A stretch of DNA of 40,297 bases from Burkholderiales bacterium (GTDB lineage Bacteria > Pseudomonadota > Gammaproteobacteria > Burkholderiales > Ga0077523): positions 1 through 40,297 of the forward strand of contig JAHCKV010000001.1 in NCBI GenBank assembly GCA_026125595.1. The letters are read 5' to 3'. Shown here in pieces: positions 15,022-40,297 of this stretch (its first letter is position 1; each line of letters begins with the position of its first letter). The position numbers and the translations under genes were made by a program. A model generated the notes under the pieces. That model did not search any database. It had not been told where the DNA came from and was given only the letters and a program-made list of their open reading frames with translations.

Positions 15022-15039
15022 TCGAGAAGGGAGACCCCA

Positions 15040-22610: not shown

Positions 22611-23365
22611 TCAGTGCTCCGCGCCGAGGTTGTCGAAATAGGCGGCGCGCACACGGGCGTCGGCGAGAATGTCCCGCATCTGGCCCTGCGCGATGACCTC
22701 GCCGACATCCATGACCAGCACGCGATCGGCGATGGTGTCGAGCAGCTCGATCCGGTGCTCGACGATGACGATGGCAACGTTGAGTTCCTTCGCCAGCAAC
22801 CGCACCAGATGATCGATCTCGTCGACCTCGGAGTTGATCAAGCCGGCGGCGGGCTCGTCCATCAGCAGCAGCGGCGGTCGACGCATCAAGCAGGCAGGCC
22901 AGCAAAGCTGCGACGATTGAGTGTCTCGAGGCTGCCGGCGATCTGATCTTCGTTGACCTTCAGCCCGACCAGTTCACACGCCCAGTCGGCATGGTGCCGG
23001 GTGCGATAGGGCGCGTAGGCCTGCCGGGCCGCCTTCAGCACTTCGGCAACGGTCAATTCCTCGGGCACCACCGGCGTTTGATAGGTGCGTCCCAGCCCCA
23101 TGCGCGCACGCTCGTACAAGCGCATCCCGGTGACATCCTGATCCTTGAACCGGACCACGCCGCTCTTGGGCGGCATGCGCCCCGACAGCACTTCGAACAG
23201 GCTGGTCTTGCCGGCGCCGTTCGGTCCGATGATGCCCAGCACCTCGCCGCGCCGGACCGACAGCGACACGCCCTTCAGGATCTCCCGCCCGCCCAGGTCG
23301 AGCCGGATATCGCGACACTCGAACAGGGGCGAAGCGGGATCGGCAGTGGACACCGTCGCGTTCAC
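22611..23365 (-). pseudogene. UrtD/LivG-type ABC ATP-binding gene, reading frame broken just before Walker B
   Basis: The N-terminal ORF 22886..23365 has Walker A GPNGAGKTS and the Q-loop. The C-terminal ORF 22611..22889 begins (L)MRRPPLLLMDEPAAGL (Walker B). The expected connecting helix LLACLL is readable only in the third frame (ORF starting at 22905). The frame changes map to about 22906 and about 22887-22890. Confidence 0.75.
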
Positions 23366-24983: not shown

Positions 24984-26012
24984 TCAGCCGAAGTGCTCGC
25001 GCTCCAGCCGGCGGTAGCGGCGCAGCAGTTCGTCGTAGTCGACGAACCCGTTGTCGTCGCGCAGCAGAGAGGCCAGTTCACCTTTGTCGTTCACGTGCAA
25101 CTTCTCGTACACGGAGCGCAGATAGAAGCGCACGGTCGCCGGCGACAGCGCGAACGTGCGGGCAATCTCCTTGTAGCTCGCGCCGCCGCTGAACTCGTGG
25201 GCGATGGTCGCCTCCCGCGCGGTCAGCACGTCGGTGCGCTGACGCGTCCGCACCGCTACCAGCAGGAAATCGCCGAGCGGATAGCGGCGCACGACGATGC
25301 GGGGCAGCTTCAGGTCGTTCTCGTTGCGGCGCAGCCACGCCTGCAGTGGCACCGGCAACACGGCACCCTGGTGATCCGGCCATTCGGCCTGCAGCGCTTC
25401 CTTGAAACCGCTCTCGGCATTCAGCACCTCGAACTGCCGATCGACCAGTGCGATTGCGATCTCGTTGCCGGTGACATTGGCCTTCAGGTATTCCAGCTGG
25501 AATGTACGATTCGCACTCCAGCCGGCGAACAGATGGGGCGACAGATACTGCGCGAGCAGCCGTTCCTCTTCGGTGTAGCGCCGCATGCCTTCCGAGCGAT
25601 ACAGCGACAGAAACACGAAGTGCCGTTCGGACGGCAGGTACACCGACGTGCAAAAGGCCTGACCGACACCGTGCTCGCCCATCAGCGTGTCGAGTCCGGG
25701 CGCCTCGCGGAAATGACTGCGGTCGTAGTTGACCGTGTACTTCGGTCGATCGCGGACTGCCTTGCCGAGAATGTCGTCGCCCTTCGTCTCTTCCCACAGC
25801 GGCACGAAGCCGGTGTGTAGATTGAAGCGATATGTGCTGTGCAGCAGGAAGCTTTCACCGCGCGGCTGCAGGATGCCCCACCACGCCTTGTCGAAACCGA
25901 TGAGGGACTGGACCCGACTCAGCGCTGCAAGCTGGTACTGGTCCAGAGAATTGCTGTGCGCGAGCTCATGCAGATCGAGCACGGCATCGCTGAACTCCGT
26001 CAAATCGAACAT
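24984..26012 (-). CDS. LuxR-family transcriptional regulator (DmfR-like position)
   Basis: ATG at 26012 after GGAGGG. The C-terminal HTH is LTAREATIAHEFSGGASYKEIARTFALSPATVRFYLRSVYEKLHV. The large N-terminal ligand/autoinducer-unrelated domain has a length comparable to LuxR-type activators of dmf genes. Confidence 0.8.
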   Translation of the reverse strand: MFDLTEFSDAVLDLHELAHSNSLDQYQLAALSRVQSLIGFDKAWWGILQPRGESFLLHSTYRFNLHTGFVPLWEETKGDDILGKAVRDRPKYTVNYDRSHFREAPGLDTLMGEHGVGQAFCTSVYLPSERHFVFLSLYRSEGMRRYTEEERLLAQYLSPHLFAGWSANRTFQLEYLKANVTGNEIAIALVDRQFEVLNAESGFKEALQAEWPDHQGAVLPVPLQAWLRRNENDLKLPRIVVRRYPLGDFLLVAVRTRQRTDVLTAREATIAHEFSGGASYKEIARTFALSPATVRFYLRSVYEKLHVNDKGELASLLRDDNGFVDYDELLRRYRRLEREHFG

Positions 26013-26202
26013 CGTCCCTCCGAAGGCCGGCCGGTTCGAGACTCGCCACGATCGGATTGTGCGTGACTGAACCGGGTATCGCACCGCTGATCGCGCGACG
26101 GCAACGGTTCGGCCGGCGACTCAGTGCCGCACCTTTCGTGCCATTGCTTCCGACGGCGCTAGTAGGCTGATTGCAGAGTGGATTGACGCTCGGGATCCGC
26201 GC

Positions 26203-26281: not shown

Positions 26282-26953
26282 TCAGCTTTCGTCGTGCTCG
26301 CCGTAGACGATGATCGACAGGAAACGGATCGGCACGTCGATCAGCTTTTCCGGACCGTGGGGCACGTTTCCGGAGAACGTCAGCGCATCGCCCGGTTGCA
26401 GCAGATACGTCGACTGCCCATGCCGGTACTCGATCTCGCCTTGCAGCATGTAGATGAACTCGGTGCCGGGGTGCTCGAAACTCTGGAAGATTTCGCTGCT
26501 GTCATCCATCGAGATCAGGAACGGCTCGAAGGTCTTGCGCGGACCCTTGTCGTAGGCCAGCAACTGATAGGTGTGACCGCGTTTGGTGCCGCGCCGGACG
26601 ACGGCCATGCCGGCATCGCGCTTGATCAGCTGTGCACCGCTTTCCTTGCGGTCGTAGTCGCGGAACAGATGCGCCAGCGAAACACCGAGGACGGTCGCCA
26701 GCTTGGCCAGCGTGTCGAGGCTCGCGGACGCCTGACCATTCTCGATCTTAGACAGCATGCCGCGGCTGATCGACACTTCACCGGCAACATCGGCGATGGT
26801 CAGCTTCTGCTGAAGCCGCAGTTGCCGCGCCACCAGACCGATGTGCCGTTCGAGACGACGCTCGCCGCGGACCGGTGCGATTTCGGGACTTTCGTCCGCC
26901 TCGTCGCCGGCGCTGGCGGCCGCCGGATCCTGCTGCGAGAGGGGAGAGCTCAT
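26282..26953 (-). CDS. XRE-family HTH + cupin transcriptional regulator (paralog 1)
   Basis: 223 aa. The HTH is KLTIADVAGEVSISRGMLSKIENGQASASLDTLAKLATVLGVSL. The C-terminal cupin is FEHPGTEFIYMLQGEIEYRHGQSTYLLQPGDALTFSGNVPHGP. Confidence 0.85.
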   Translation of the reverse strand: MSSPLSQQDPAAASAGDEADESPEIAPVRGERRLERHIGLVARQLRLQQKLTIADVAGEVSISRGMLSKIENGQASASLDTLAKLATVLGVSLAHLFRDYDRKESGAQLIKRDAGMAVVRRGTKRGHTYQLLAYDKGPRKTFEPFLISMDDSSEIFQSFEHPGTEFIYMLQGEIEYRHGQSTYLLQPGDALTFSGNVPHGPEKLIDVPIRFLSIIVYGEHDES

Positions 26954-27067: not shown

Positions 27068-27418
27068 TCATGCCCCGCCGTCCGTGGATGGCGCCGAGAA
27101 CGCGGGCATCGTGCCCGCACCCTTGCGGAACATGAACACGAACGTCGCGTCGTCGTCGACGCGCTCGGCATCGCCGCCATCGGTGTGCAGATTGTTGCGG
27201 AAATAGCGCAGCACCGTCTGCGTCGCCTTGCTCGTCAGGGCCGGCTTGTAGATCCACGGGTCCGCATCGGGACGCACGCGGTGTTCGTCGAACAGCGCCC
27301 GCTCGGGCTGCGCGGCGACCCCCACGTACCAGTCGGAAAAGTCACCGCCGAGCCCTTTGATGTAGGCGAGGAACTCGTACTTGATCTGCTGAACGCTGAA
27401 CACCTCTGCCATCGTCAT
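27068..27418 (-). CDS. Hypothetical protein
   Basis: The ORF has a GGAG upstream of ATG 27418/27412. The sequence MTMAEVFSVQQIKYEFLAYIKGLGGDFSDWYVGVAAQPERALFDEH... is non-repetitive and not Arg/Pro-biased. I recognise no family. Confidence 0.45.
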   Translation of the reverse strand: MTMAEVFSVQQIKYEFLAYIKGLGGDFSDWYVGVAAQPERALFDEHRVRPDADPWIYKPALTSKATQTVLRYFRNNLHTDGGDAERVDDDATFVFMFRKGAGTMPAFSAPSTDGGA

Positions 27419-27660: not shown

Positions 27661-27676
27661 TGGTACGCATGTTGCA
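27661..27676 (+). promoter_or_regulatory. Sigma54-like -24/-12 element upstream of module B
   Basis: TGGTACGCATGTTGCA vs TGGCAC-N5-TTGCA, with exact spacing, GG and GC present, and one C->T change in the -24 box. It lies 224 nt upstream of the ATG at 27900. Confidence 0.35.
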
Positions 27677-27899: not shown

Positions 27900-28340
27900 A
27901 TGATATCCATCCCGCGAAAAGGGACTCCGGAGTACGACCGCCTCGTGCGCGAGCACGAGGCCTGCATGAAATCGATGAAAGGCGTCGCAGGCTGTTCCGT
28001 ACTGATGTGCAAGACGCCCGGTGACACGACGGAGATCTCCGGCGGCATTCACGAAGATCTTCTGCTCAACCGCGTGCTGTTGCGCATGCGCACGCTGCCG
28101 GCCAAGAACAAGCTGGTCGTGATCTGCACCAAGCTGGAAAAAGAATGGCGCATCGGCCGGCTGTCCGGCATTCGCGGCGTCCCGCCGGTGTTCGTGGACG
28201 ACCGCACATTCGACGACGAGCAGATGGTGCAACACGCCATCTTCCTGATGCGTCTGGACGAAATGGCCGAAACCGACGGCATGCCCGAGCACTTCCACGA
28301 AGGCTGGAAGCGGCGCAACGACAACTGGACGGCAACCTGA
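27900..28340 (+). CDS. DMFase small (alpha) subunit-like protein, paralog 2
   Basis: ATG at 27900 after GAGGAGA. The 146 aa are homologous to the C-terminal segment of ORF 19401..20984 (see there). It lies 52 nt upstream of a DMFase large-subunit homolog. Confidence 0.6.
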   Translation: MISIPRKGTPEYDRLVREHEACMKSMKGVAGCSVLMCKTPGDTTEISGGIHEDLLLNRVLLRMRTLPAKNKLVVICTKLEKEWRIGRLSGIRGVPPVFVDDRTFDDEQMVQHAIFLMRLDEMAETDGMPEHFHEGWKRRNDNWTAT

Positions 28341-28392
28341 TTCGCCATCCCCGCGCCCGAATCCAACCCCATCAGCACAGGAGATCCAATCA

Positions 28393-30804
28393 ATGATGCG
28401 GCTCACTGGGTACGCCGACAAATTCGGCGTGCACCCCGGCGACACGATTCGCTTCTACGTCAACTGCGACGGACCCAAGGCCTACAAGGCCGAGGTCGTC
28501 CAGATGATCAACGGCGACACCAATCCGCGCGGCCCCGGCTTCATCGAGAAGGCGGTCAGCGCATCGATCAACGGCGAATACACCGGCCGCAAGCAGGTGA
28601 TCCACAGCGGTTCGTACGGCTACGTGACGGACAAGCCGGCGCTGCGCGTGCAGAGCTTCACGCTGCAATGCTGGATCTGGCCGACGACGCCGAAGACGCA
28701 CCCGAAGTACTGGAAGCACGGTCCGCAGGGACTGTTGACCAAGTGGTCGCCCGCGGATGGCGGTTACGGCCTGTTCATCAACGAAGCCGGCTGCCCGGAA
28801 CTGCGCGTCAACGGCAAGACGCTCACCACCGGTGCGCCGCTGCGCGACCACGCGTGGCATTTCCTCGCGGCCACCTACGACGCGAAGACCGGTGAAGCCA
28901 TCCTGTATCAGGAACCGCAACTCACCTATGCGCTCGATCCGGAGATTCCGCCGGCGAAGGCCGTGCTGTCCGAGAAGATCTCGCAATCGGCCATACCGTT
29001 CGTGATCGCCGGCTACGTCGGCAAGGCCGATGGCGGGCCCCTCGCGGCTTCGTCGCTGCCGAAGGGCGTCGAGATCGCCGGCAAGTACAACGGCAAGATC
29101 GACAGCCCGCGCGTCTGCAATCGTGCGCTGTCGCGGCTCGAGATCGAAACGATGAAGCTCGGTGGCCAGACCGGCATGGACGAACGACGCGGCAGCGGCC
29201 CCACGCCGAAGCTGTCGGAATGCCTCGTCGCCGCGTGGGATTTCGGTGTCGGCATCAACACGCTGACCTGCACGGACAAGGGACCTTATCTGTTCCACGC
29301 GAGTCTCGTGAACTGCCCCACCCGCGCGATGACCGGTTACAACTGGTCCGGTCACAACTTCGACTGGAAGCACGCGCCGGCCGAATACGGCGCGATCCAC
29401 TTCCACGACGACGATGTGGATGATGCACGCTGGGATGCCGATGTCGTGTGGGAAGTCCCGAAGGATCTGAAGAGCGCGTGCTATGCGTTGAAGCTGACGA
29501 CGCCCGACGACGATGAGGATTACATCCCGTTCTTCGTCGTACCGCAGGTGGGCCAGGAAACCGCGAAGATCGCGGTGATGATCCCGACCATCAGCTACAT
29601 GGCCTACGCCAACGAGCACCTGGCCAACAACGCCGGCGGCGCGGAGCTGCTGGTGTACCGGGTGCCGATCATGCAGCACCAGAACATGTTCCTGTCGGAA
29701 CACCGCGAGTACGGCGGCTCGATCTACGACACCCACACCGACGGCAGCGGCTTGTGCCTGTCGTCGCGGTTGCGTCCGATCCTCAGCATTCGCCCGAAGT
29801 ACGACCACTTCCTGTCGCAATCGCCGTGGCAGTATCCGGCCGACCTGCACCTGATCTACTGGCTCGAAGTGAACGGCTACAAGTACGACGTGATCACCGA
29901 CGAGGACGTCAACTACGACGGCCTGGCGCGGCTGCAGAACTACAACGTCGTCATCACCGGCTCCCATCCGGAGCACAACTCCGGCCCGCAACTCGACGCT
30001 CTGCACAACTACACGCAGCAAGGCGGTCGCCTGATGTACATGGGCGCGGACGGTTGGTACTGGGTGCACTCGTACCACCCGGGCTACGACCACCTCGGTC
30101 GCGGCATCGTCACCGAAATGCGTCGTTGCGAATCCGGCATCCGGACCTGGCGCGCCGATCCGGGCGAGTACTACCACCAGTCCACCGGTGAGCTGGGCGG
30201 CATGTGGCGGTATCGCGGCCGCTATCTGCACACCGTTGCCGGTACCGGCATGTCGTCGGAAGGCTTCGACATCTCGACCTACTACTCCCGTACACCGGAG
30301 AGCAACGACCCCCGGGTGTCGTGGGCGTTCGAAGGCATCGAGCAGGATGCGAAGCTCGGCAACTTCGGTCTCGTCGGTGGCGGCGCGGCCGGCACCGAGC
30401 TCGACATCGTCGACACCATGCTGGGTTCTCCGCCGCACACGCTGGTCGTCGCGACGTCGGCCGGACGGCACACCGAAGGCTATCTGCTGGTCATGGAAGA
30501 CTATGGCTTCAACCAGCAGGGTCTCGACGGTACGCAGCATCCTCGCGTCCGTTCCGACATCGCGTATCACGAGACTCCCAACGGCGGCGCCTGCTTCGCG
30601 TTCAGTTCCATCGCGTTCTGCGGTTCGCTGCCGTGGAACAACGGCGATCCGGCGAAGAACAACATCTCCCGTCTCGTGAAGAACGTGCTGGACCGGTTCA
30701 TGGCGGATGGACCGCTGCCGCCGCCGCCGAAGGACAGCTTCATCCATCGGGGACGCGCGGACTACGATCCGCCCGGCAACAAGGTGTCGAACGTTCGCGG
30801 CTAG
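28393..30804 (+). CDS. DMFase large (beta) subunit-like protein, divergent paralog 2
   Basis: 803 aa. It shares the N-terminal pattern (GYADKFGVHPGDTIRF...VVQMINGDTNPRGPGF) and the blocks SYMAYANEH, SIYDTHTDGSG, TGSHPEH, GGAAGTELD, LGSPPHT and DGPLP with the copy at 17048..19366. Residues ~90-330 are strongly diverged, and there is an extra C-terminal tail (PPPPKDSFIHRGRADYDPPGNKVSNVRG). Confidence 0.8.
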   Translation: MMRLTGYADKFGVHPGDTIRFYVNCDGPKAYKAEVVQMINGDTNPRGPGFIEKAVSASINGEYTGRKQVIHSGSYGYVTDKPALRVQSFTLQCWIWPTTPKTHPKYWKHGPQGLLTKWSPADGGYGLFINEAGCPELRVNGKTLTTGAPLRDHAWHFLAATYDAKTGEAILYQEPQLTYALDPEIPPAKAVLSEKISQSAIPFVIAGYVGKADGGPLAASSLPKGVEIAGKYNGKIDSPRVCNRALSRLEIETMKLGGQTGMDERRGSGPTPKLSECLVAAWDFGVGINTLTCTDKGPYLFHASLVNCPTRAMTGYNWSGHNFDWKHAPAEYGAIHFHDDDVDDARWDADVVWEVPKDLKSACYALKLTTPDDDEDYIPFFVVPQVGQETAKIAVMIPTISYMAYANEHLANNAGGAELLVYRVPIMQHQNMFLSEHREYGGSIYDTHTDGSGLCLSSRLRPILSIRPKYDHFLSQSPWQYPADLHLIYWLEVNGYKYDVITDEDVNYDGLARLQNYNVVITGSHPEHNSGPQLDALHNYTQQGGRLMYMGADGWYWVHSYHPGYDHLGRGIVTEMRRCESGIRTWRADPGEYYHQSTGELGGMWRYRGRYLHTVAGTGMSSEGFDISTYYSRTPESNDPRVSWAFEGIEQDAKLGNFGLVGGGAAGTELDIVDTMLGSPPHTLVVATSAGRHTEGYLLVMEDYGFNQQGLDGTQHPRVRSDIAYHETPNGGACFAFSSIAFCGSLPWNNGDPAKNNISRLVKNVLDRFMADGPLPPPPKDSFIHRGRADYDPPGNKVSNVRG

Positions 30805-30903
30805 CGGTCGTTCGATGTCGGCGACGACGGTCCGGAACATCGGACCGTCATCCTGCTGCGGGAAGGCACCGTTTGCCTTCCCGCGGTTTCGCTGGAGACC
30901 TGC

Positions 30904-32136
30904 ATGAGACCCCAACCCCTGCTCGGATTCCACGACGGCGCCCAGGATCTCACCGATCCGGCGTTCTACCGCGACGCGCTGGCTCCGTTCCCCGATGGGC
31001 GGATGCTGCCGCGATCAGCGTATCGCGTGAAAGCCTTCGCCGATCTGGAGGACGAGAAGATCTGGACCCGCCGCTGGATCTGCGTCGGCCACGCATCGGC
31101 CATTCCGAACACCGGCGATCTGCTGCCGTTCACGGTCGGCAACCACGGCATCCACGTTCGCCGCGACGAAGACGGCGGCCTGTCCGCGTGGTTCAATTTC
31201 GCACAGCACGGCGGCTGCCGCTTCGTACCGCGGCAATGTCAGACCGGTCGCAAGACCAGTTGCTTCTACACGTCGTGCGGCCACTCCCGCGATCGCGATG
31301 TGCTGCGGGCGGAAGCCGACGGCAGCGATACCACCGAGATGTACATGTACCGCGGGATCAACCCGCTCAAACTGCTGCCGGTACGGCTGTACACGATCGG
31401 TTCGCTGTTGTTCGTGAATCTCGACGCCACGGCGGCTCTGCCGCAGGCGTTCCCCGAGATCGTCGAGTCGCTGTTGCGGCGGCTGTTCGAGCCGAATCGG
31501 CCATCGGTCGGCCGGTTCCAGGTGGACAACGCCGCCAACTGGAAGCTGCGCTTTCGCGACGCGATCGCTGCCGGGCACGCAACCGCATCGACCCACGTCG
31601 AACAGCCTCCGCACGGCGCCGTCTTCTGGGCTCGTTCGATCCGGACCAACGACGCGACGATCGCGGTCACGCACGGCCTGTCGGCGCTCGAATCCATCGG
31701 CGCACCCGGAACATCGACGATCGCGGGGTTCCTTCCCAACCTGCTGGTGCGCGTGGAAGACGGCCTCGTCGTGACGACGCTGTTGAAGTCGGTCGGGCTG
31801 ACCGAGACTTCCGAAACCAGCGATGTGTTCCGGCTGGACGCCGACGCCACGCCGGCCGACGAGGAATTGCTGGTGCGCGGGCGTGCGCTGGTGCAACGCG
31901 AAGCAGCCGCCACCGCCCGGTTCCAGGTCGATCTCGCCGGCGCCGAGAACCCGTCACCGTTCCTGCCGCAACGGGTCGATGCCGAGCCGTCACCGCCGGA
32001 GACCGATCCGCTGGCACTGGACTTCCAGCATCGGCTGATCGACTGCCTGCTGGAGCGGCACGAGTATGTCGACCGGCCGCTCTTCTCCAATCCCGGGCGC
32101 GCGCTGAATGCCGGCGTCAACTCGGGCACGTTCTAG
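30904..32136 (+). CDS. Rieske-oxygenase-alpha-like protein with non-canonical cluster-ligand pattern
   Basis: 410 aa, with ATG after GGAGA. The N-terminal context WICVGHASAIPNTGDLLPFTVGNHGIHVRRDEDGGLSAWFN is typical of Rieske oxygenase alpha subunits. The ligand region reads QHGGCRFVPRQCQTGRKTSCFYTSCGH instead of CxH-x15-17-CxxH. The C-terminal domain contains NWKLRFRDAIAAGHATASTH. Confidence 0.6.
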   Translation: MRPQPLLGFHDGAQDLTDPAFYRDALAPFPDGRMLPRSAYRVKAFADLEDEKIWTRRWICVGHASAIPNTGDLLPFTVGNHGIHVRRDEDGGLSAWFNFAQHGGCRFVPRQCQTGRKTSCFYTSCGHSRDRDVLRAEADGSDTTEMYMYRGINPLKLLPVRLYTIGSLLFVNLDATAALPQAFPEIVESLLRRLFEPNRPSVGRFQVDNAANWKLRFRDAIAAGHATASTHVEQPPHGAVFWARSIRTNDATIAVTHGLSALESIGAPGTSTIAGFLPNLLVRVEDGLVVTTLLKSVGLTETSETSDVFRLDADATPADEELLVRGRALVQREAAATARFQVDLAGAENPSPFLPQRVDAEPSPPETDPLALDFQHRLIDCLLERHEYVDRPLFSNPGRALNAGVNSGTF

Positions 32137-32226
32137 AAGCATGCCGAACGCGTATCCGATGCGCAGCCATCCATCGCCGGGCGCGTTCGCCCTTTCGTCC
32201 ATCCACCGCAACCGGAGTCTTCACCG

Positions 32227-32916
32227 ATGCCCTCTTCATTGAACCCCGCCGGACTGGATCCGGCCGCCGTGAAGGCAGGCTACGAGCACTACCGCCGTGG
32301 CGACTTCGCCGCCGCCTACCAATGCTGGCTGCCGGCGGCCGAAGCCGGCGATGCCGAAGCGCAGGCCTGGATCGGCACGCTGCACGAATGCGGCGAAGGT
32401 GTCGTGCAAAGCTATGCGGAAGCCTTCCGCTGGTATCTCCAATCCGCCGAAGCCGGCAACATCCTCGCGCAGAACAATGTCGGCGCGATGTACGGCATGG
32501 GCCGCGGCGTTGCGCGCGACGATCTGAAGGCCGCCGAATGGCTGGAACGCGCAGCGACCCAGGGCGATACCAATGCCATGTTCAACCTGGCCGTGTTCCA
32601 TGCCAAGGGCCGCGGCGTCGCGGTCGACATGGCACGCGCGGTGGAGTGGTACACGCGCGCATCGCATCTGGGGCATGCGCCTTCGCAGGCGCGGCTCGGC
32701 TATCTGTACTGCGGCAACGACGGTGTCGCGAAGGACCGGATCAGCGCCTTCGTGTGGTTGTCGCTGGCCGGCAATCACGGCGCCGGCAACGCGCTGAATG
32801 CCCTCGAACCCATCGTGGACCAGATGTCCGTCGAGGAGAAGGAAGCCGCCCATCGGCGGCTCGCCGCGTTCCGACCGGCCGCCATCGGCACGTCGGCCCA
32901 ACGCGCATCCGCCTAG
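32227..32916 (+). CDS. Sel1-repeat (SLR/TPR-like) protein
   Basis: 229 aa with about 5 tandem ~36-aa Sel1 repeats (A.WY..AA..G...AQ..LG.MY..G.GV..D). Examples are AFRWYLQSAEAGNILAQNNVGAMYGMGRGVARD and AVEWYTRASHLGHAPSQARLGYLY. Confidence 0.85.
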   Translation: MPSSLNPAGLDPAAVKAGYEHYRRGDFAAAYQCWLPAAEAGDAEAQAWIGTLHECGEGVVQSYAEAFRWYLQSAEAGNILAQNNVGAMYGMGRGVARDDLKAAEWLERAATQGDTNAMFNLAVFHAKGRGVAVDMARAVEWYTRASHLGHAPSQARLGYLYCGNDGVAKDRISAFVWLSLAGNHGAGNALNALEPIVDQMSVEEKEAAHRRLAAFRPAAIGTSAQRASA

Positions 32917-32941: not shown

Positions 32942-33676
32942 TCAGGTTTGACCCGTCTCGCCGTAGACGATGATGGACAGCATGCGGATGGGTGTCTGCA
33001 GCAGTTTTTCCGGACCGTGGGGCACTTCGCCACGGAACGTCAGCGAGTCACCGGGCTGCAGCAGATAGGTCTGCTGACCGTGCCGGTACTCGATGACGCC
33101 CTCCAGGATGTGGATGAACTCGGTGCCCGGGTGCTCGAAGCTCGGAAACACTTCGCTGGCGTCGTCCATCAAGACCAGGAACGGCTCGAAGGTCTTCTGC
33201 GGGCCCTTGTCGTAGGCGAGCAGTTGATACGTGTGTCCCCGTTTCGTGCCTCGCCGGACCACCTGCATGCCGTCACCCTGATGCACGTGTTGCGCACCGC
33301 CGGTCGGCAGATCGTAGTTCGCGAACAACCGGGCGAGCGAAATGCCCAGTGCTGCCGACAGTTTTGCCAGCGTGTCGAGCCCGGTCGACACCTGGCCGTT
33401 CTCGATCTTCGACAACATCCCGCGACTGATGCGCGCCTGCTCCGCCACGTCGGAGATGGTCAGCCGCTGTTGCCGGCGCTGTTCGCGGATCACGCCTCCG
33501 ATGGCCCGTTCGAGGGCGCGCTCGCCGGCATCACGCCCGGTCGCGACTTCGGCTTCGTCATCGGGCACCGGCTCGGCCGGTCGCTGCGGCGCCCGCAGCG
33601 ACTTCGCCGCCGGTACCGGCTCCGGCCGCACCTTGCGGCGGCCGTCGGTCTTGGTACGAATCGGTCCCTTGGCCAC
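32942..33676 (-). CDS. XRE-family HTH + cupin transcriptional regulator (paralog 2)
   Basis: It shares long identical runs with 26282..26953 (VVRRGTKRGHTYQLLAYDKGP, KTFEPFL, FEHPGTEFI, YLLQPGD, VPHGPEKL, LSIIVYGE). A GTG at 33676 preceded by GGAG (5-nt spacer) avoids overlap with dmmC. The alternative ATG at 33748 would overlap dmmC by 58 nt. Confidence 0.8.
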   Translation of the reverse strand: MAKGPIRTKTDGRRKVRPEPVPAAKSLRAPQRPAEPVPDDEAEVATGRDAGERALERAIGGVIREQRRQQRLTISDVAEQARISRGMLSKIENGQVSTGLDTLAKLSAALGISLARLFANYDLPTGGAQHVHQGDGMQVVRRGTKRGHTYQLLAYDKGPQKTFEPFLVLMDDASEVFPSFEHPGTEFIHILEGVIEYRHGQQTYLLQPGDSLTFRGEVPHGPEKLLQTPIRMLSIIVYGETGQT

Positions 33677-33690
33677 GATCGCTCCGCGGT

Positions 33691-34731
33691 TCAGTCGGGT
33701 GCGCCGCCGGGCGACGTCGCCGCCCCGTCGTCGTAGCGCGCGAGCCATTCCAGCGCCATGTCACGGTAGCGCGTGAGACCCTTGTAGTCGACCAGTTGCT
33801 GCGGCAAGGACCGCAGCACCCGCGGCAACCGGCGACCCCATTTCGGCACGGTGACCAGGTCCTCGAGGCTGATCAGGTAGCAGCGGATCGGAAACACGAT
33901 CGCATTGCTGCGCGGCAGCCGCCAGAAGCTCTGCAGCTCGACGCGCAGGTGCAGCTTGCGGCCGATGTTGTCGGGCGTCAGCGAGAGCCGGTCGGGACCC
34001 CAGCTCGGGTAACGTTCCGGCGACGTATCGAGCCGCGGATTGACGGTCATGGTCCAGTTGAGCCGGCGCACCGGCGAGCCGACCCGCAGTTCGAGCAGGT
34101 ACTTCAACGCCCGCTCGAACACGCCCATCTCGTGGGCCAGCGGCACCGGACCGTGCCATTCGAAGAAGTTCATGCCGATGTCGAAATCGAGCGACCAGTC
34201 GGCCTGCGTCGTGATCATCCCGGCATCCATCCAAAGATTGCCGTCGCGGTGATCGAGCAGCGCGAAGTCGCCCTGGGACTGCCGCGTGACGTATTCCATG
34301 GGCTCGCACGGCAGCGTCAACGCATCGCCGAACACGAACCGCTGATCGAGTCCGAGCGGCCGGTTGATCCAGTGCCAGCGGTCACCGTCGCGAGTCAGTG
34401 CGAAGTGCTCGGGGTAGTCCCGCGCCATCGCCGTCATCAACAGTTCCAGCAGATCCCATTGCGCGGTCATCATGTGCGGCAGCGCCTGGCAGCGCAGCGG
34501 ATCCTCGCGCAGCACCAGCGCGCGATCGCGCATCTCGGACACGTAGTGCTCGTCCACGTCGATCGGAAACTCGTAGACGGAGCCTTTCGGCCCGGGCACG
34601 TGGGGCTCGATGTTGACCGCGTACATGTACCGGTCCTCGTGGAACGGGAACGGGAAGCGCCGGATCGCGTGGGGACTGTTGCGGAACGTGAAGTCGTCCC
34701 GGAACGTCTCTTCGTTGAATGCCAGTTCCAT
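33691..34731 (-). CDS. dmmC: Heme-dependent oxidative N-demethylase alpha / dimethylamine monooxygenase DmmC (DUF3445)
   Basis: 346 aa, MELAFNEETFRDDFTFRNSPHAIRRFPFPFHEDRYMY... The family call comes from the sequence pattern and from the position as the last gene of a D-A-B-C order. Confidence 0.8.
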   Translation of the reverse strand: MELAFNEETFRDDFTFRNSPHAIRRFPFPFHEDRYMYAVNIEPHVPGPKGSVYEFPIDVDEHYVSEMRDRALVLREDPLRCQALPHMMTAQWDLLELLMTAMARDYPEHFALTRDGDRWHWINRPLGLDQRFVFGDALTLPCEPMEYVTRQSQGDFALLDHRDGNLWMDAGMITTQADWSLDFDIGMNFFEWHGPVPLAHEMGVFERALKYLLELRVGSPVRRLNWTMTVNPRLDTSPERYPSWGPDRLSLTPDNIGRKLHLRVELQSFWRLPRSNAIVFPIRCYLISLEDLVTVPKWGRRLPRVLRSLPQQLVDYKGLTRYRDMALEWLARYDDGAATSPGGAPD

Positions 34732-34752
34732 GAATCTCTCCGGTGGGGCCGT

Positions 34753-35718
34753 TCAAAGGTCGAGCACGAGCTCGCGCCCGTCGAAGCGGGATACGCACGG
34801 CATGATCTTGCGCCCGGCCGCGCGGTCGGCGGTGGTCAGCCAATGGTCATGATGCTGCAGCCGACCATCACAGCCGAGCACCGCGGTTTCGCATTGTCCG
34901 CACGCACCGCCCCGACACAGATACGGCACTTCGACACCGGCGGCCTCGATCGCTTCGAGCAGGCTTTCGTGCTCGCCGACGTAGACGCGCAGGCCGGCAC
35001 GCTGCAGATACACGTCGAAGGGCGTGCCCGACGGCGGCGCCGCGAAATGTTCCGCGTGCAGATTGTGCCCGGGCCAGCCGGCCGCCCGGGCCGCCTCGAG
35101 CGTCGCGTCGATCAACGGCGTCGGGCCGCAAACGTACAGGTGGGTTCCCAGCGGCTGACTCGCCACGAGTTGCGTGACATCGAGCCGCTCCCCCTTCGAC
35201 GCACAGTAGAAGCGCACATGGCCGGGAAAGCAGCGTTCGAGCGCTTCGCGGTAGGCGCCGCGTTCCGGGCTACGGATGCAGTAGTGCAGCTCGAACGGCC
35301 GACCTTCGGCCGACAACTGGGCCATCTGCGCCAGGAACGGCGTGATGCCGATGCCGCCGGCCACCAGCACGTGCTTGCGGGCGCGCCAGTCCAGCATGAA
35401 CAGATTCACCGGCGCACTGACGGCGAGCGTATCGCCGACCCGGACGCGATCGTGCATGAACACCGAACCGCCGCGGGACACTTCGGCCCGTTGCACGCTG
35501 ATCTCGTAGTCGCCGTCGTGCAGCGGAGAACTCGTCAGCGAATACGGGTTGCGGCGAACGACGCCGCCATCGCGCATCTCGACGACGATGTGCGCCCCGC
35601 CCGAGTATCGCGGCAGCGGCGAAGCGTCGGTCGCGGCGAGGCGGAACCGCTTGACGAACGGCGTGACCGGAACGATCTCGGCGACGCGCACGGGACTGGA
35701 ACGGGGGCGGATGCTCAT
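34753..35718 (-). CDS. dmmB: PDR/VanB-type FMN + [2Fe-2S] oxidoreductase, DmmB
   Basis: 321 aa with the FMN site RNPYSL, NAD(P)H site VAGGIGITP, and C-terminal plant-type ferredoxin CRGGACGQC...C. The start overlaps the dmmA stop (ATGA at 35718..35715). Confidence 0.88.
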   Translation of the reverse strand: MSIRPRSSPVRVAEIVPVTPFVKRFRLAATDASPLPRYSGGAHIVVEMRDGGVVRRNPYSLTSSPLHDGDYEISVQRAEVSRGGSVFMHDRVRVGDTLAVSAPVNLFMLDWRARKHVLVAGGIGITPFLAQMAQLSAEGRPFELHYCIRSPERGAYREALERCFPGHVRFYCASKGERLDVTQLVASQPLGTHLYVCGPTPLIDATLEAARAAGWPGHNLHAEHFAAPPSGTPFDVYLQRAGLRVYVGEHESLLEAIEAAGVEVPYLCRGGACGQCETAVLGCDGRLQHHDHWLTTADRAAGRKIMPCVSRFDGRELVLDL

Positions 35719-36320
35719 CGGTACAGCTCCTCGGCCGGCGGCCGATCACCCGGCTTCTCGGCATCGATCATGACGCCCTGGAAAGCGCCGATGCGGCGCG
35801 AATAATGATCGCGCACGAACAGGTGCCGTCCGCAATGGGCGCAGGGCACGATGCTCATCGTCACCGACTCGGTGATGCCCTTGCAGTGCACGCATTGCAC
35901 GCGGCGCGCCAGCGAACCGCGATGCTCGGTCCGCACACCGGCATGATCGACGCCGAACTCGCCGGCGACCCGGATGCCTTCGCCGATCAACGGTTCGGTG
36001 CCGGCCAGATAGAGCTGCGTTCCCATCCGCGCCGCACCGAGCAACGCCCGCAGCCGGGGCAGCATCGCCGGCACCGTCGGCGATTCGTGCCACGAGAACG
36101 GCGCCAATGCGGCCAGCTTCGCGCCGTGGTCCTGCGCGGCCGAACCGCCCGGTACGTACAGTATGTGCGTCCGTGCCCAGAAGCCGTCCGGCGCGTCAGC
36201 CACCATGTCCAGTACCGCGAGCGCACCTTCGGCGTCGGCCACCATGATGTTCGACCGCGCCTGCGGATTCGACGTCAGCCGGCCGTAGACCGGCCGGCTC
36301 TTGATACCGGATGCCAACAT
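35715..36320 (-). CDS. dmmA: Dimethylamine monooxygenase subunit DmmA-family protein
   Basis: ATG at 36320 after GAAGAGG gives 201 aa. It has a C-terminal Cys cluster CVHCKG...PCAHCG. The gene lies between the GcvT-like and PDR-like genes, as in dmmDABC. The ORF-track N-terminal extension overlaps dmmD and is Arg-rich. Confidence 0.7.
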   Translation of the reverse strand: MLASGIKSRPVYGRLTSNPQARSNIMVADAEGALAVLDMVADAPDGFWARTHILYVPGGSAAQDHGAKLAALAPFSWHESPTVPAMLPRLRALLGAARMGTQLYLAGTEPLIGEGIRVAGEFGVDHAGVRTEHRGSLARRVQCVHCKGITESVTMSIVPCAHCGRHLFVRDHYSRRIGAFQGVMIDAEKPGDRPPAEELYR

Positions 36321-36334
36321 GTTCGCGACCTCTT

Positions 36335-37486
36335 CTACGACTGCCCCTTGCCGACGACGGTACGCTTCCTCTTCTCCGGATCGTCGAACGGAATCGAATG
36401 GGCGATCGCGGACGCCTGCACCGACTTGCCGCGCACGTCGAGCCGGGTGCCATGCACGGCGTACTTCGGATCGAACCGCGCCAGGGCCATGGATTTTCCG
36501 GTCAGCTTGGACACCATGCCGCAGGTGATCACGCCCACCTGGCGCCCGTCGGCCCACAACGTGTCACCGCCATCGGTCGGCGCGTCCGCATCGACCAGCA
36601 CGCCGAAGATCTTCATGCGTTCCTTGCCCTTCAGCGCGTAGTGCCGATCGGCGCCACGAAAACCCGTCTTGCCGGGACTCACCGTGAAATCGAGACCGAG
36701 CTCCCACAGCGAATCACCATCCACCGAGTCAGGCGTCGCATAGGGATACATCAACGAGTTGTCGTACGGATAGAACAGCAGGTACGACTCGACGCGCAGC
36801 ATGTCGAGCACCGTGAAGCGGCACGGAATAATGCCGAACGCCTTGCCCTCCTCGAGGATCGTGTCCCACAGGAACACGGCGTCCTTCGCGCCGACGAAGA
36901 TCTCGTAGCCGCGCTCGCCGGTGTAGCCGGTCCGCGAGATCATCACGTGGCGACCGAACAGCGTCGTCTGCAGATGATGGAAATACTTCAGGTCGTGGAT
37001 GCCCGGCACGTGCCCGGCGAGGAACTCGACCGCCAGCGGCCCTTGCAACGAAAGATCGTGCAGATCGTCGTCGAAGCGGATCGACACATCCTTGCCGACG
37101 GCGGATCGCGCGATCTCTTCCTGCCCGGTGCCACTGCCGTGCACGACCAGCCACGAATTCGGCGACAGGCGATAGCAGATGCAGTCTTCGGTGAAGTATC
37201 CGGCATCGTTCAGCATGGCCGCATAGACCGACTTGCCCGGATACACCTTCGACAGATCGCGGGTCGTGGCGTGGGTCAACACGGCCGTGGCGTCGGGACC
37301 GGTGACGTGCACTTTCTTCAGTCCGCTCACGTCCATCAGGCCCGCCCTGGTGCGGATCGCGATGTGTTCGGCGTACATGTCCTTGTCGTAGGTCCACGCC
37401 GTACCCATGCCGTTCCAGTCTTCGAGCCGCGAGCCGAGAGCGCGATGGCGATCGGCCAGTACCGAGGTGCGCCAGGATGTGGTCAT
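36335..37486 (-). CDS. dmmD: GcvT-family (tetrahydrofolate-binding aminomethyltransferase-like) protein, DmmD
   Basis: 383 aa with GcvT-fold blocks (AIRTRAGLMDVSGLKKVHVTGPDA, ISRTGYTGERGYEIF, LRVESYLLFYPYD). Confidence 0.85.
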   Translation of the reverse strand: MTTSWRTSVLADRHRALGSRLEDWNGMGTAWTYDKDMYAEHIAIRTRAGLMDVSGLKKVHVTGPDATAVLTHATTRDLSKVYPGKSVYAAMLNDAGYFTEDCICYRLSPNSWLVVHGSGTGQEEIARSAVGKDVSIRFDDDLHDLSLQGPLAVEFLAGHVPGIHDLKYFHHLQTTLFGRHVMISRTGYTGERGYEIFVGAKDAVFLWDTILEEGKAFGIIPCRFTVLDMLRVESYLLFYPYDNSLMYPYATPDSVDGDSLWELGLDFTVSPGKTGFRGADRHYALKGKERMKIFGVLVDADAPTDGGDTLWADGRQVGVITCGMVSKLTGKSMALARFDPKYAVHGTRLDVRGKSVQASAIAHSIPFDDPEKRKRTVVGKGQS

Positions 37487-37535
37487 GTCTGTGGGTCTCC
37501 GTCGTCGGGGTATGGGTTCGATGCGGGCGCCGGGA

Positions 37536-39848
37536 TCAGGCGCGGACGCGCTTCTTGTCCGGGTCGTAGTGCGGAAACGGCTCGACCGTGCAGTCGAGAC
37601 GCTTCTGGTGTCCGTCGAGCTTGCCGATCTCGAGCGCGGTGCCCGGTTCGACGTGGACGATATCCACCCGCGCCAGCGCGATCGTGCGATTCAGGATCGG
37701 TGAGTGCATGCCGCTGGTGACGACACCGATCTGTGCCCGCCCGGCGCATACCGGATCGCCGTGCACCGGCACGTCGCGTCCTTCGACGGCGAGGCCGACC
37801 AACCGGCGCTGCGGATGGGCCGCGCGCCGCTGCAGCGCTTCGCGACCGACGAAGTCGGCGCGCTTCGTGGCCAGCGGCACCGTGAAACCGATGCCGGCCT
37901 CGAACGGATCCGTCTGATCGCAAAACTCGTAGCCGGCAAACACGAGTCCTGCTTCGATGCGCAGCAGGTCGAGCGCCTCGAGGCCCAGCGGCGCGATGCC
38001 CAACGGCGCGCCCGCGGCGAACACCGTGTCCCATATCGGCGTCGCGTCCTTCGGGTGGCACCAGATCTCATAGCCGAGCTCGCCGGTATATCCAGTGCGC
38101 GACACCACCACCGCCGGCCCGGTCGGACCGCCGACCCTTGCGATCGCGAAGCGAAACCACTTCAGTTCGCCGATCGACGGTTGCGTCGGCGCGGTGAACA
38201 GCATGCCGTCGAGCAACTCGCGGCTGCGCGGTCCTTGCACGCTCAGGTTGTGCAGTTGGTCGGTGGACGAGCGTACCCAGGCACGGAAGCCCTTTTCTTC
38301 GGCAAGCCGACGCAACCACAGCCCGCAGTACGGATCACCGCAGACGAAGCGGAAGTTGTGCGGCCCGAGCCGGAACACGGTGGCGTCGTCGAGCATGCCG
38401 CCATGCGGATGGCAGACGGCGGTGTAGACCACTTGCCCGACGGCCAGCCGCGTGATGTCGCGGGTCACCGCGAAATCGAGCAGTGCTTCAGCGTCGGGAC
38501 CCAGCACTTCGAACTTGCGCAGCGGTGACAGATCCACGGCCGCGACCTTCTCGCGGCATGCCCAGTACTCCGCGATCGCACCTTCGCTGGCATAGGACGC
38601 CGGCAACCAGTAGCCGCGATACTCGGTCATGCGGCGCGACAGCGGCGCGGTGCGGGCATGGAAGGCCGTCTGCTGCGTCAGAACCGGCGGGCTGTCGGGT
38701 GTCACGCGCATGGCGATGGCTCGCGGAAAGTGATGCTCGGCCGGATAGACACGGACCTGGATGTCGGTCGGGTTCCAGCCGTTGGCGGGGTCGATGTCGT
38801 CGGGACAGGCAGACGACGCGCAGACCAGATCGGACAGCGCGCGCATCAGTACGTAGTCGCCCGGACGCGACCACGGCTCGTCGAGCCCGATGCGGTCGTC
38901 CGCGACGGTCGTGTTGTAGAAGAAGTTGATGGCCGGCCAGCCCGGGCGGCTCGCGATGCCGAACGGGGCGAGCACCTGGTTGAAGTTCTCCGAGCAGTTG
39001 GCGTGGCCCGGATATCCCATGTCGTCGTAGTACCTGGCCGTGCAGGCCAGCGCGAACGTGTCGTGCCGCCCGCAGGTGTCCTGCACGACTTCGAGCATCG
39101 GGCGCATCCGTGCGTCGAAGAACTTCGACGCGAGCCCCGGCCCGGGATAGCTGCGGCCGGTCAGCGTGCGCGTCACGGTGGCATCGAGCCCCACTTCGAC
39201 GCCCTGCTCCAGCTGCCACGCATCGAATGCGAGGAAATCGGAGCACTCGCGCCCTTCGATGTCCACCACCTGGATCCATTCGCCGGCGGCCACGCGATAG
39301 GCCTGCGCTGTACCGTGGGCGATCCGGAAATCGAGCCGCGGCGGCGCCAGCGGCGCCGGCGCCTCGACCCGTACCACCGCCGCTGCGCGACGGACGATGC
39401 GGATCGCATAGTCCGTGGCGCGCACCGGCGATTCGATCGACGGCGTCTGCGGCGGGATCGCCACGATGCACAGCAGAGGCTCCGCGACCTGCGCCTGCAG
39501 CACTTCACCCGGCAGTTGCTGCGCGCCGGACAGCGCGATGGCACCGGCTGCCAGCAGATCGCGACCTACGCATCGCGGATCGGATAGCGGTTCGAAGCCG
39601 CACGCGGCGCAGATCGCGGGCAGCGTGCCGCGGCCTTGCGGTACGCGACCGAGCGCCGCCGCGCCATCACCGGCGGCGGACAGCGCGAACAGCCACGCGC
39701 CCTGGCCACCTTCGACATCGACGATCGACAGCACGTCACCGGCCTGCAGGGTGATCACTCGACATGCGCCTCCCGGCACCCGCAGTTCCGTGGCATCCGG
39801 CACGGCGGCCGGACCGGGGGAAGCCGACATTGCGACGGCGTCGATCAT
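37536..39848 (-). CDS. tdm: DUF1989 + GcvT fusion protein, trimethylamine-N-oxide demethylase (Tdm)-like
   Basis: ATG at 39848 overlaps the flavin reductase stop (ATGA) and gives 770 aa. The N-terminal DUF1989-type region is FRIAHGTAQAYRVAAGEWIQVVDIEGRECSDFLAF...CSENFN...DYVLMRAL. The C-terminal GcvT domain is VSRTGYTGELGYEIW, LRIEAGLVFAGYEF. This architecture is what has been described for Tdm. The 74-codon upstream extension in the ORF track is Arg/Gly/Pro-rich. Confidence 0.78.
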   Translation of the reverse strand: MIDAVAMSASPGPAAVPDATELRVPGGACRVITLQAGDVLSIVDVEGGQGAWLFALSAAGDGAAALGRVPQGRGTLPAICAACGFEPLSDPRCVGRDLLAAGAIALSGAQQLPGEVLQAQVAEPLLCIVAIPPQTPSIESPVRATDYAIRIVRRAAAVVRVEAPAPLAPPRLDFRIAHGTAQAYRVAAGEWIQVVDIEGRECSDFLAFDAWQLEQGVEVGLDATVTRTLTGRSYPGPGLASKFFDARMRPMLEVVQDTCGRHDTFALACTARYYDDMGYPGHANCSENFNQVLAPFGIASRPGWPAINFFYNTTVADDRIGLDEPWSRPGDYVLMRALSDLVCASSACPDDIDPANGWNPTDIQVRVYPAEHHFPRAIAMRVTPDSPPVLTQQTAFHARTAPLSRRMTEYRGYWLPASYASEGAIAEYWACREKVAAVDLSPLRKFEVLGPDAEALLDFAVTRDITRLAVGQVVYTAVCHPHGGMLDDATVFRLGPHNFRFVCGDPYCGLWLRRLAEEKGFRAWVRSSTDQLHNLSVQGPRSRELLDGMLFTAPTQPSIGELKWFRFAIARVGGPTGPAVVVSRTGYTGELGYEIWCHPKDATPIWDTVFAAGAPLGIAPLGLEALDLLRIEAGLVFAGYEFCDQTDPFEAGIGFTVPLATKRADFVGREALQRRAAHPQRRLVGLAVEGRDVPVHGDPVCAGRAQIGVVTSGMHSPILNRTIALARVDIVHVEPGTALEIGKLDGHQKRLDCTVEPFPHYDPDKKRVRA

Positions 39849-40297
39849 GGCGCTGCCACCGGATGCTCGTCCGCGATGGCGCGGTAGTGGCTGCGGAAGT
39901 ACAGCAGCGGCAGACCGTCGGGGTCGAAGCCGAAATCCACCACCCGCCCCACCACGATCACGTGATCGCCGCCGTCGTGCTGCACGTGGGGCAGGCACTC
40001 GAAGGTGGCCAGCACGTCGTCCAGCAGGGGCACGCCCCGGGCGCTGCGGCGGAACGCCACCGCGTCCCACTTGTCGGCCCCGGCGCTGGCGAAGCGGTGG
40101 GACAGATCGCGCTGGTCGTCGCGCAGGATGTTGATGCCGAAACCGCGGCAGCCCAGCAGGGGGGCACAGCTCCAGGCCCGGCGCGACAGGCTGAACAGGA
40201 TCAGCGGCGGTTCCAGGGACACGGTGTTGAAGGAGTTGGCCGTGACCCCGATGAGCCCGGCCGTGTCGTGCTCGGCCGTGATCACGGTGACGCCGGT
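39845..40297 (-). CDS. Flavin reductase-domain protein (HpaC/RutF-like), 5' end outside the window
   Basis: The reverse strand reads ...TGVTVITAEHDTAGLIGVTANSFNTVSLEPPLILFSLSRR...GDHVIVVGRVV, the flavin reductase-like FMN-binding fold. The frame is open to the window edge. Confidence 0.8.
   Translation of the reverse strand, partial: TGVTVITAEHDTAGLIGVTANSFNTVSLEPPLILFSLSRRAWSCAPLLGCRGFGINILRDDQRDLSHRFASAGADKWDAVAFRRSARGVPLLDDVLATFECLPHVQHDGGDHVIVVGRVVDFGFDPDGLPLLYFRSHYRAIADEHPVAAP

Follow-up and report, generated by a model that had tools for sequence, protein, structure and literature searches.

What would a second, divergent pair of dimethylformamidase (DMFase)-like subunits do in a methylated-amine gene neighbourhood, set in one row with genes for a Rieske-oxygenase-like protein and a Sel1-repeat protein? 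The question is posed by a four-gene row at positions 27900-32916 of the window, that is, of the whole 40,297-bp contig analysed, which comes from a metagenome-assembled Burkholderiales bacterium. An earlier note on this DNA had proposed an undescribed amidase-plus-oxygenase system. The reading favoured here, to which we give about an even chance, is that the region represents one instance of a widespread gene module, so far uncharacterised, in which a DMFase-family iron amidohydrolase with a natural small amide or urea as substrate is joined by a non-oxygenase accessory set. The four open reading frames (ORFs) of the row and the fifth conserved module gene, which is divergent here, are as follows:

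27900-28340, forward strand: alpha subunit of 146 aa, DMFase family, module-type subfamily (assigned by position and by PF26354 in relatives)
28393-30804, forward strand: predicted beta catalytic subunit of 803 aa, Fe-dependent amidohydrolase of the DMFase family, module-type subfamily (DMFA2_C; iron ligands; Asp at the Asn547 position)
30904-32136, forward strand: Rieske-oxygenase alpha-subunit-like protein of 410 aa without the canonical catalytic metal sites (AlphaFold2 [AF2] model, Foldseek and a 102-sequence alignment)
32227-32916, forward strand: Sel1-repeat (TPR-like) protein of 229 aa, cytoplasmic by sequence, fourth gene of the row (Pfam Sel1, PF08238, E-value of 2.7e-33, four repeats)
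27068-27412, reverse strand: p100, a protein of ~100 to 114 aa beginning MxFSVQQIKYE, whose homologs adjoin the module in relatives

The row was as the earlier note had described it, with four co-oriented genes separated by spacers of 52, 99, and 90 nt. All four ORFs had a coding-type third-position GC content (GC3) of 0.79 to 0.86, and each was preceded by a GGAG-type Shine-Dalgarno sequence 6 to 9 nt 5' of its ATG; a GGAG also lies 5' of the p100 ATG at 27412. The three upstream proteins of the row have the accessions MCW5623113-5 (locus tags KIT73_00120-130), and the 90%-identity cluster of the small subunit contains a Methyloversatilis protein.

Relatives of the Rieske-like gene were found in 190 species-level genomes when two motifs of that family were used to scan one genome for each GTDB species. 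From the scan, 80 loci were kept, and their gene order and identities were determined by tblastn with the window proteins. As far as the contigs reached, the order in all 80 loci was a UrtA-like substrate-binding protein (SBP) gene, two permease genes, two ATPase genes, alpha, beta, and the Rieske-like gene, with Sel1 and p100 coming after the Rieske-like gene in either order. The arrangement thus recurs in Beta-, Alpha-, and Gammaproteobacteria, and this recurrence supports the idea that the Rieske-like and Sel1 proteins are true conserved partners of the subunit pair. Sel1 homologs (43 to 73% identity) were present at nearly all related loci, and p100 homologs (34 to 68% identity to the window protein) adjoined the module in 77 of the 80; p100 homologs had also been present in eight of nine loci looked up before the genome scan, the exception being L005/L006. 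In the context of six Rieske-like homologs, each lay in an unchanged order behind an alpha gene (146 aa, DMF_alpha) and a beta gene (~800 aa, DMFA2_C). Alpha homologs were 64 to 90% identical to the window protein, and beta orthologs were 74 to 88% identical over full-length alignments. Judged from sequence, beta is under strong purifying selection, with 75 to 93% identity (tblastn segments) over the three proteobacterial classes, against 32 to 56% for the Rieske-like homologs in the 80 loci. Beta appeared to be fused to the Rieske-like protein in L017, and p100 to Sel1 in six loci, but the presence of stop codons ruled these fusions out.

The 803-aa protein matched Pfam DMFA2_C (PF20254; 9.9e-91) and Laminin_G_3 (1.5e-10) and could be aligned over its full length with 6lvb_A, the large subunit of the solved Paracoccus DMFase (531 bits, residues 4-777 versus 6-761), so that it has the DMFase domain composition of DMFA2_C with N-terminal Ig-like and pentraxin/LamG domains. 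The motif blocks that had been proposed to hold the iron site start at residues 401 (SYMAYANEH), 443 (SIYDTH), and 522 (TGSHPEH), and the claimed spacings were confirmed: the Tyr-Tyr and Tyr-Glu distances were 40 and 82 in both window copies of the large subunit, this one and a 772-aa protein considered below, versus 41 and 81 in 6lvb_A. Residues were then mapped onto those defined by the structure and mutagenesis of parDMFase (PMC7686228). Y405, Y445, and E527 corresponded to the parDMFase iron ligands Y399, Y440, and E521, in agreement with the earlier proposal, and H525, E669, and F706 corresponded to H519, E657, and F693. Of the three residues shown by mutagenesis to be catalytic (H519, E657, and N547), the first two were kept, but N547 is D553 in the 803-aa protein, and all 77 module-type sequences (77 of 77) have Asp there. 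The mapped iron ligands and the His, Glu, Phe, and Asp residues were invariant in all 75 full-length orthologs and in the protein of plasmid pAMI5. The first ~330 residues, which had been called strongly diverged from the 772-aa copy, were indeed more diverged but only moderately so (36% identity over residues 1-330 and 45% over residues 331-772). The extra Pro/Gly-rich tail is real; it is not low-complexity noise but a conserved subfamily motif, DGPLPPPP...HRGRADYDPPxNK.

Retention of all iron ligands and of H519, E657, and F693 would suit an ordinary DMFase isozyme, in which alpha and beta turn dimethylformamide (DMF) into dimethylamine and formate and the neighbours are passengers. Dimethylamine monooxygenase genes adjoin the module in the window, and the module carriers Hyphomicrobium and Methyloversatilis are among the genera with DMFase-subunit matches, of unspecified subfamily, in DMF enrichment communities. 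Against this, the position fixed as Asp throughout the subfamily is essential as Asn in parDMFase, whose N547A variant is inactive (PMC7686228). Identity to proven DmfA2 (pAMI2 and Methylobacterium DM1) was only 38 to 39%, and synteny of the partner genes in 80 of 80 loci from three classes is not passenger behaviour. DMF, moreover, is a synthetic solvent, yet beta is strongly and anciently conserved. The one piece of experimental evidence concerns the plasmids of Paracoccus aminophilus JCM 7686. Its pAMI5 (JCM7686_pAMI5p063-064) carries an ortholog (69% identity for alpha and 73% for beta) with a Rieske-like gene and p100 behind it, and this related dmfA1-dmfA2 pair was reported not to be linked to DMF use, the strain without pAMI2 being unable to use DMF (PMC4543880). 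That the strain fails on DMF although pAMI5 carries the module argues that the module is not a DMFase in vivo, and we regard the isozyme explanation as very unlikely. The pAMI5 locus differs in that its Rieske-like gene is shorter (326 aa), Sel1 is missing, an AmiS/UreI channel replaces the ABC transporter, and the regulator is a two-component one. Beyond one sentence on pAMI5, no published description of the module was found in the literature searched, and the earlier suggestion of a distinct, apparently undescribed system around a divergent DMFase-type pair is borne out.

Compared with the DMFases DmfA1/DmfA2 (Paracoccus sp. DMF 6lvb, P. aminophilus pAMI2, and Methylobacterium sp. DM1), the module has the two-subunit architecture in common, and its beta shares with DmfA2 the three-domain large subunit, the 2-Tyr-1-Glu ligands, and His519, Glu657, and Phe693. 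It differs in the 38 to 41% identity of beta, the subfamily-wide Asp for Asn547, and the conserved extra C-terminal tail; in an alpha subunit that is barely alignable with DmfA1 and has three invariant Cys; and, relative to the dmf operon, in XRE-cupin regulators instead of the LuxR-type DmfR, three extra partner genes, and, elsewhere, a Urt-like transporter. A more distant family member, N-acetyl-(R)-beta-phenylalanine acylase (8huy; 390 bits to the 803-aa protein), shows the DMFase-family fold serving a non-DMF substrate. No small-subunit chain appears among the names of its deposited entries, and we know of no partner genes for this acylase related to those of the module.

The alpha gene lies 52 nt 5' of beta, the position of the small-subunit gene in DMFase loci. 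Its direct match to the solved small subunit 6lvb_B was weak (E-value of 0.14 with the single sequence), and a 20-sequence alpha profile gave a weak match of 0.046 that ran colinear along the C-terminal half. In the eight related loci looked up, the 146-aa protein encoded at the equivalent position carries Pfam DMF_alpha (PF26354). Residues H19, C22, C37, C76, and H112 were invariant in the subfamily, and Cys was absent from the solved DmfA1 segment that was aligned; the invariant His and Cys residues suggest a putative metal site that the solved DMFase small subunit is without. In the Hansschlegelia loci L010/L056 (positions 5174-5536), and also in L083 and L087, an extra 120-aa DMF_alpha-like ORF was seen 5' of the regular alpha gene.

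The oxygenase half of the amidase-plus-oxygenase proposal was not upheld. The 410-aa protein scored 18.4 bits against Pfam Rieske, under the cut-off of 20.3, and its best NCBIfam and Protein Data Bank (PDB) sequence matches were Rieske oxygenase alpha subunits, such as GbcA (the best NCBIfam match) and CntA. The AF2 model, built with 102 homologs (pLDDT 87, pTM 0.89), has the two-domain fold of Rieske oxygenases, with a Rieske domain and a START/Bet v1-like catalytic domain, and its top Foldseek matches were CntA, stachydrine demethylase (Stc2), and terephthalate dioxygenase (TPADO), with E-values of 1e-14 to 1e-16. In place of the Rieske ligands C-x-H...C-x-x-H, the window protein has A100-Q-H102 and C120-x-x-T123. 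Across the homolog alignment, the canonical first Cys position was Ala in 100 of 102 sequences and the second His position was Thr in all 102, while H102, C105, C112, C120, and C125 were invariant. A 2-His-1-carboxylate triad was likewise not found, no His or Asp within residues 209-365 being conserved in 60% or more of the 102 sequences; the first iron-His position (CntA His208) was His in 6. The protein is thus a predicted catalytically degenerate pseudo-oxygenase, which has kept the fold, lost both defining metal sites, and gained an invariant His/Cys4 motif.

Set beside CntA, Stc2, and GbcA, which are alpha3-type Rieske oxygenases acting on N-methyl compounds, the Rieske-like protein has the fold in common (E-value of ~1e-16, TM 0.55 to 0.65) and keeps the NWK and PN motifs. 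It differs from them in its ~15% identity, in AQH...CxxT for CxH...CxxH, in the new invariant Cys105, Cys112, and Cys125, and in lacking both a 2-His-1-carboxylate site and, within the module, a partner reductase. An active oxygenase or N-demethylase whose metal centre departs from the canonical one, acting before or after the amidase, for example by demethylating an N-methyl amide or the amine product, would agree with the nearness of the fold to the N-demethylating or quaternary-amine enzymes CntA and Stc2, with the GbcA match, and with the surrounding genes, which handle methylated amines; the invariant His102 and four Cys could hold an Fe-S cluster. Such a pathway is nevertheless distinctly unlikely, since two Rieske ligands out of four are replaced in 100 or more of the 102 sequences and no 2-His-1-carboxylate site is conserved, the first iron-His being kept in so few. 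The catalytic domain of the Rieske-like protein, without conserved His or Asp, belongs to the fastest-evolving part of the module (32 to 56% identity). Moreover, no reductase or ferredoxin gene was conserved inside the module at the loci with called genes, although such donors can be encoded elsewhere.

If not an oxygenase, the Rieske-like protein may act with Sel1 and p100 as an accessory set. The Sel1 protein consists of four tandem repeats, and no signal peptide was seen on inspection of its N terminus; the role of an assembly or scaffold factor, which the earlier note had assigned to it, is plausible. No Pfam or NCBIfam family was found for p100, whose AF2 model is an alpha/beta structure (pLDDT 88) with no fold match in the PDB (best E-value of 0.46). 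Signals around the genes that may bear on their expression were the following:

30805-30903, forward strand: structured spacer 3' of beta with three hairpins, the last a 14-bp GC stem
27661-27676, forward strand: sigma-54-like -24/-12 match TGGTACGCATGTTGCA, with one mismatch to TGGCAC-N5-TTGCW, 224 nt 5' of alpha

The beta-Rieske spacer folds with -60.5 kcal/mol (z of -5.2). A comparable long perfect hairpin followed the beta stop codon in 56 of 79 related loci (median z of -2.86), L001, L003, L005, L007, L008, and L010 being further loci in which it was noted, whereas the alpha-beta spacers were unstructured (hairpin in 4 of 74, median z of +0.17). The hairpin is kept across the family as a feature and not as a sequence. 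It is a probable partial terminator or attenuator, or a 3' stabiliser, that would set expression ratios; its conservation suggests that the downstream genes are expressed at lower levels, which fits accessory rather than stoichiometric roles. By simple scan, no clear terminator or sigma-70 promoter was identified. Control by sigma-54 was considered and rejected: counts of matches across the window were at chance level, and the motif was not conserved upstream in 61 relatives, so that the match in the divergent promoter region is possibly a chance one.

The same conserved hairpin weighs against the possibility that a larger holoenzyme contains the Rieske-like protein, Sel1, and p100 as stoichiometric subunits, structural or regulatory, or that they form a START-like small-molecule sensor, rather than serving as maturation factors. 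Strict co-occurrence of the partner genes would agree with that possibility, as would the beta tail HRGRADYDPP, which is of the kind bound by TPR/Sel1 domains, and the fact that Rieske oxygenase alpha subunits form trimers. However, p100 is divergent here and varies in position, in pAMI5 there is no Sel1 gene and the Rieske-like gene is shortened, and alpha and beta evolve far more slowly than the accessory proteins; we consider subunits of this kind unlikely. For the accessory set itself, urease UreDEFG and the nitrile hydratase activators offer an analogy only: there too, non-catalytic genes are co-inherited with a metal-dependent C-N hydrolase, 3' of the structural genes. There is no sequence or fold kinship with them and no NTPase in the module set, and the accessory role proposed here is a predicted one.

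Clues to the substrate came from the transporter and from neighbouring genes. The module in relatives is preceded by a five-gene transporter in UrtABCDE order, comparable with the urea transporter UrtABCDE and with FmdDEF and AmiC, which bind short-chain amides; the SBP gene was found in most related loci reaching far enough upstream, and the full five-gene order was seen in loci with called genes, with NCBIfam typing for L003. In that locus, UrtB and UrtC scored above the NCBIfam equivalog cut-offs and UrtD and UrtE just under them, whereas the SBP, at 343 bits, fell well below the UrtA cut-off of 492.75. The solved structures nearest to the SBP were receptor 8tg1, cyanobacterial UrtA, and the acetamide sensor AmiC. 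Around the transporter, two further arrangements were observed. In L010/L056, L083, and L087, a hybrid histidine kinase/LuxR-type response regulator pair and a second binding protein stand in place of the ABC transporter. A gene for a ~420-aa TPR and 2OG-Fe(II) oxygenase-like (PF13759) protein, absent from the window, often adjoins the module (L008, L009, and at least 19 alphaproteobacterial loci, e.g., L016-L052), either 5' of the SBP gene or, in L009, after p100.

In betaproteobacterial loci, the module is surrounded by genes of the N-methylglutamate methylamine pathway (gmaS, mgsABC, and mgdABCD), which lie beside it in L001, L003, L005, L011, L012, and L014. Other neighbours included a complete nickel-urease operon in L009, urease genes near the module in four other loci, and CN-hydrolase or amidase-signature genes in some. 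Methylotrophs are common among the named hosts (Hansschlegelia, Hyphomicrobium, Methylopila, Methylobacterium, Ancylobacter, and Methyloligella), and the genomes with the module also include marine Alpha- and Gammaproteobacteria; many hosts are not methylotrophs. The wider window is itself a methylated-amine and nitrogen island, with these components:

14683-16413: GlnK-AmtB
33691-40285, reverse strand: complete-looking methylated-amine cluster (DUF3445/HODM-alpha-like DmmD, PDR-type reductase, DmmA-like protein, GcvT-like DmmC, trimethylamine N-oxide [TMAO]-demethylase-like protein, flavin reductase)

The DmmDABC-type dimethylamine monooxygenase genes sit 3' of the four-gene module, and the TMAO-demethylase-like (Tdm) protein has 844 aa with DUF1989 and GCV_T. 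The dmm genes, at ~73% DNA identity to those of a Rhizobium plasmid, were the only match (72 to 74%) of the window to plasmids by megablast. The expectation of a methylated amide other than DMF as substrate fits this neighbourhood of methylamine, dimethylamine, and TMAO genes and the pAMI5 locus not linked to DMF.

Much of the same evidence could point to a nickel-independent hydrolase of non-methylated urea or formamide, which would serve nitrogen scavenging with ammonia as the product, the methylamine linkage reflecting no more than a shared nitrogen-source island. The passing or near-passing scores of UrtB to UrtE, an SBP nearest to UrtA and AmiC, GlnK-AmtB in the window, and the many hosts that are not methylotrophs favour it, as does the abundance of DmfA-annotated proteins in ocean metaproteomes, where they correlate with archaeal AmoA (PMC9477243). 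The SBP is, however, clearly under the UrtA cut-off, a nickel-urease operon already lies beside the module in L009 and urease genes near it in the four other loci, and the named hosts are strongly enriched in methylotrophs, with the betaproteobacterial copies lying within methylamine pathways. On balance, a substrate free of methyl groups appears unlikely in the form proposed.

The transporter type, the neighbouring genes, the pAMI5 datum, and the fixed Asp at position 547 together point to a small natural amide of the urea or formamide type, which in this lineage probably carries N-methyl groups. In the favoured reading, the alpha/beta amidohydrolase, with mononuclear iron held by two Tyr and one Glu and with Asp fixed in place of the oxyanion/water-binding Asn547, would hydrolyse such an amide and not DMF as such, probably setting free (methyl)amines or ammonia. 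In relatives, the substrate would be imported by the dedicated Urt-like ABC transporter. In this betaproteobacterial lineage it would probably be N-methylated, and the methylamine or dimethylamine released may feed the adjacent DmmDABC/Tdm genes here and the N-methylglutamate pathway in relatives. The Rieske-like protein with its remodelled His/Cys4 site, Sel1, and p100 would form a sub-stoichiometric accessory set for assembly, iron loading, or iron redox upkeep, expressed by read-through of the conserved post-beta hairpin. A bolder version of this proposal, put forward tentatively, is that the module is a hitherto unrecognised iron-dependent route that frees nitrogen and C1 units from a natural small amide or urea (e.g., N-methylurea, N-methylformamide, or a related metabolite) and the natural ancestor of the xenobiotic DMFases, with a Rieske-derived protein as a new class of Fe-S (His/Cys4) maturation or redox-maintenance factor, a Sel1 scaffold, and a small protein without a solved-structure match.

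Several points weigh against the favoured reading. The window has no Urt-like transporter, and the xre and p100 genes abut alpha directly; the substrate was deduced from the transporter type and the neighbouring genes, and these neighbours vary by lineage (methylamine genes, urease, and CN-hydrolase). In characterised DMFases, alpha and beta alone suffice for activity (PMC7686228), and membership of the family therefore does not imply that accessory proteins are needed. The invariant His and four Cys of the Rieske-like protein could support real redox chemistry, and the Cys-rich loop is a low-confidence part of the model (pLDDT 55 to 77). This protein and the three invariant Cys of alpha are putative metal binders, and the activity and expression of every module member are likewise predicted. 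Finally, the post-beta hairpin could be a full terminator, read-through to the accessory genes being a deduction.

The regulators that bracket the module in the window were as follows:

26282-26953, reverse strand: XRE-HTH and cupin transcriptional regulator (HTH_3, 7e-15; Cupin_2, 1.3e-11)
32942-33748, reverse strand: second XRE-HTH and cupin regulator, a paralog of the first (Pfam HTH_3 and Cupin_2)

The first has ~80% DNA identity to L011 (positions 229-785), L013, and L014 at the equivalent position and, by position, is orthologous to the regulator that lies 5' of the module in betaproteobacterial relatives. A regulator at the position of the second was also found in L003, L005, L011, L012, and L014, and two paralogs bracket the module likewise in L011 and L014. 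The long, Arg-rich N-terminal extension of the second ORF overlaps the dmmD-like gene and is probably not translated. The window is syntenic with L011, L013, and L014 (xre and p100 on one side, alpha on the other), and a 5.4-kb transporter segment is missing relative to L011 and L014. No LuxR-type DmfR, such as stands next to dmfA1-dmfA2 in a dmf operon, adjoins the module; the LuxR-type gene of the window, at 24984-26084, belongs to the operon of the other DMFase-family copy, which is the following:

17048-19366, reverse strand: second DMFase-family large subunit, 772 aa, in the final position of an ABC-transporter operon that includes a LuxR-type regulator

This copy, which had been described as the more canonical of the two, is barely so: its identity to proven DmfA2 was 43 to 44%, against 38 to 39% for the 803-aa copy, and by sequence neither is a canonical DMFase. 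It keeps Asn at the N547 position and belongs to a third subfamily, 60 to 62% identical to genes on Agrobacterium, Rhizobium, and Aminobacter plasmids. Upstream of it, a 527-aa ABC permease (19401-20984, reverse strand) ends in a DmfA1 domain (residues 413-524 versus 6lvb_B, E-value of 8e-11), which indicates that the small subunit of the 772-aa enzyme is fused to the transporter; the same fusion was found on an Aminobacter plasmid. In two gammaproteobacterial loci, L023 (~16.6 kb) and L032 (~12.2 kb), a second DMFase-family gene, 64 to 71% identical to the 772-aa copy, lies less than 10 kb from the module, so that co-location of both subfamilies recurs outside this contig.

Two genes elsewhere on the contig are apparently split: an ABC ATPase (22886-23365, reverse strand, the ABC_tran N-terminal part, and 22611-22889, reverse strand, the BCA_ABC_TP_C tail) and a ComM/Mg-chelatase-like gene (12265-13131 and 11634-12257, both on the reverse strand). 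These are frameshifts, pseudogenes, or errors in the metagenome assembly, and exact gene boundaries on the contig call for caution.

Present in at least 190 species-level genomes, the module far exceeds the proven DMFases in both spread and conservation. Identifying its substrate would give a function to a common gene set that is misannotated as "LamG domain protein," "biphenyl dioxygenase," or "hypothetical," and could reveal an overlooked source of organic nitrogen or methylated amines. The degenerate Rieske-oxygenase homolog with its new invariant His/Cys4 motif would be of interest as an enzyme fold taken over for an accessory function. Where "DMFase genes" are counted in metagenomes to gauge DMF degradation, this non-DMF subfamily is probably counted as well. 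How the unusual DMFase fold with its 2-Tyr-1-Glu iron site evolved and what it does in nature have been stated to be unknown (PMC7686228), and the module bears on the natural origin of the DMFases.

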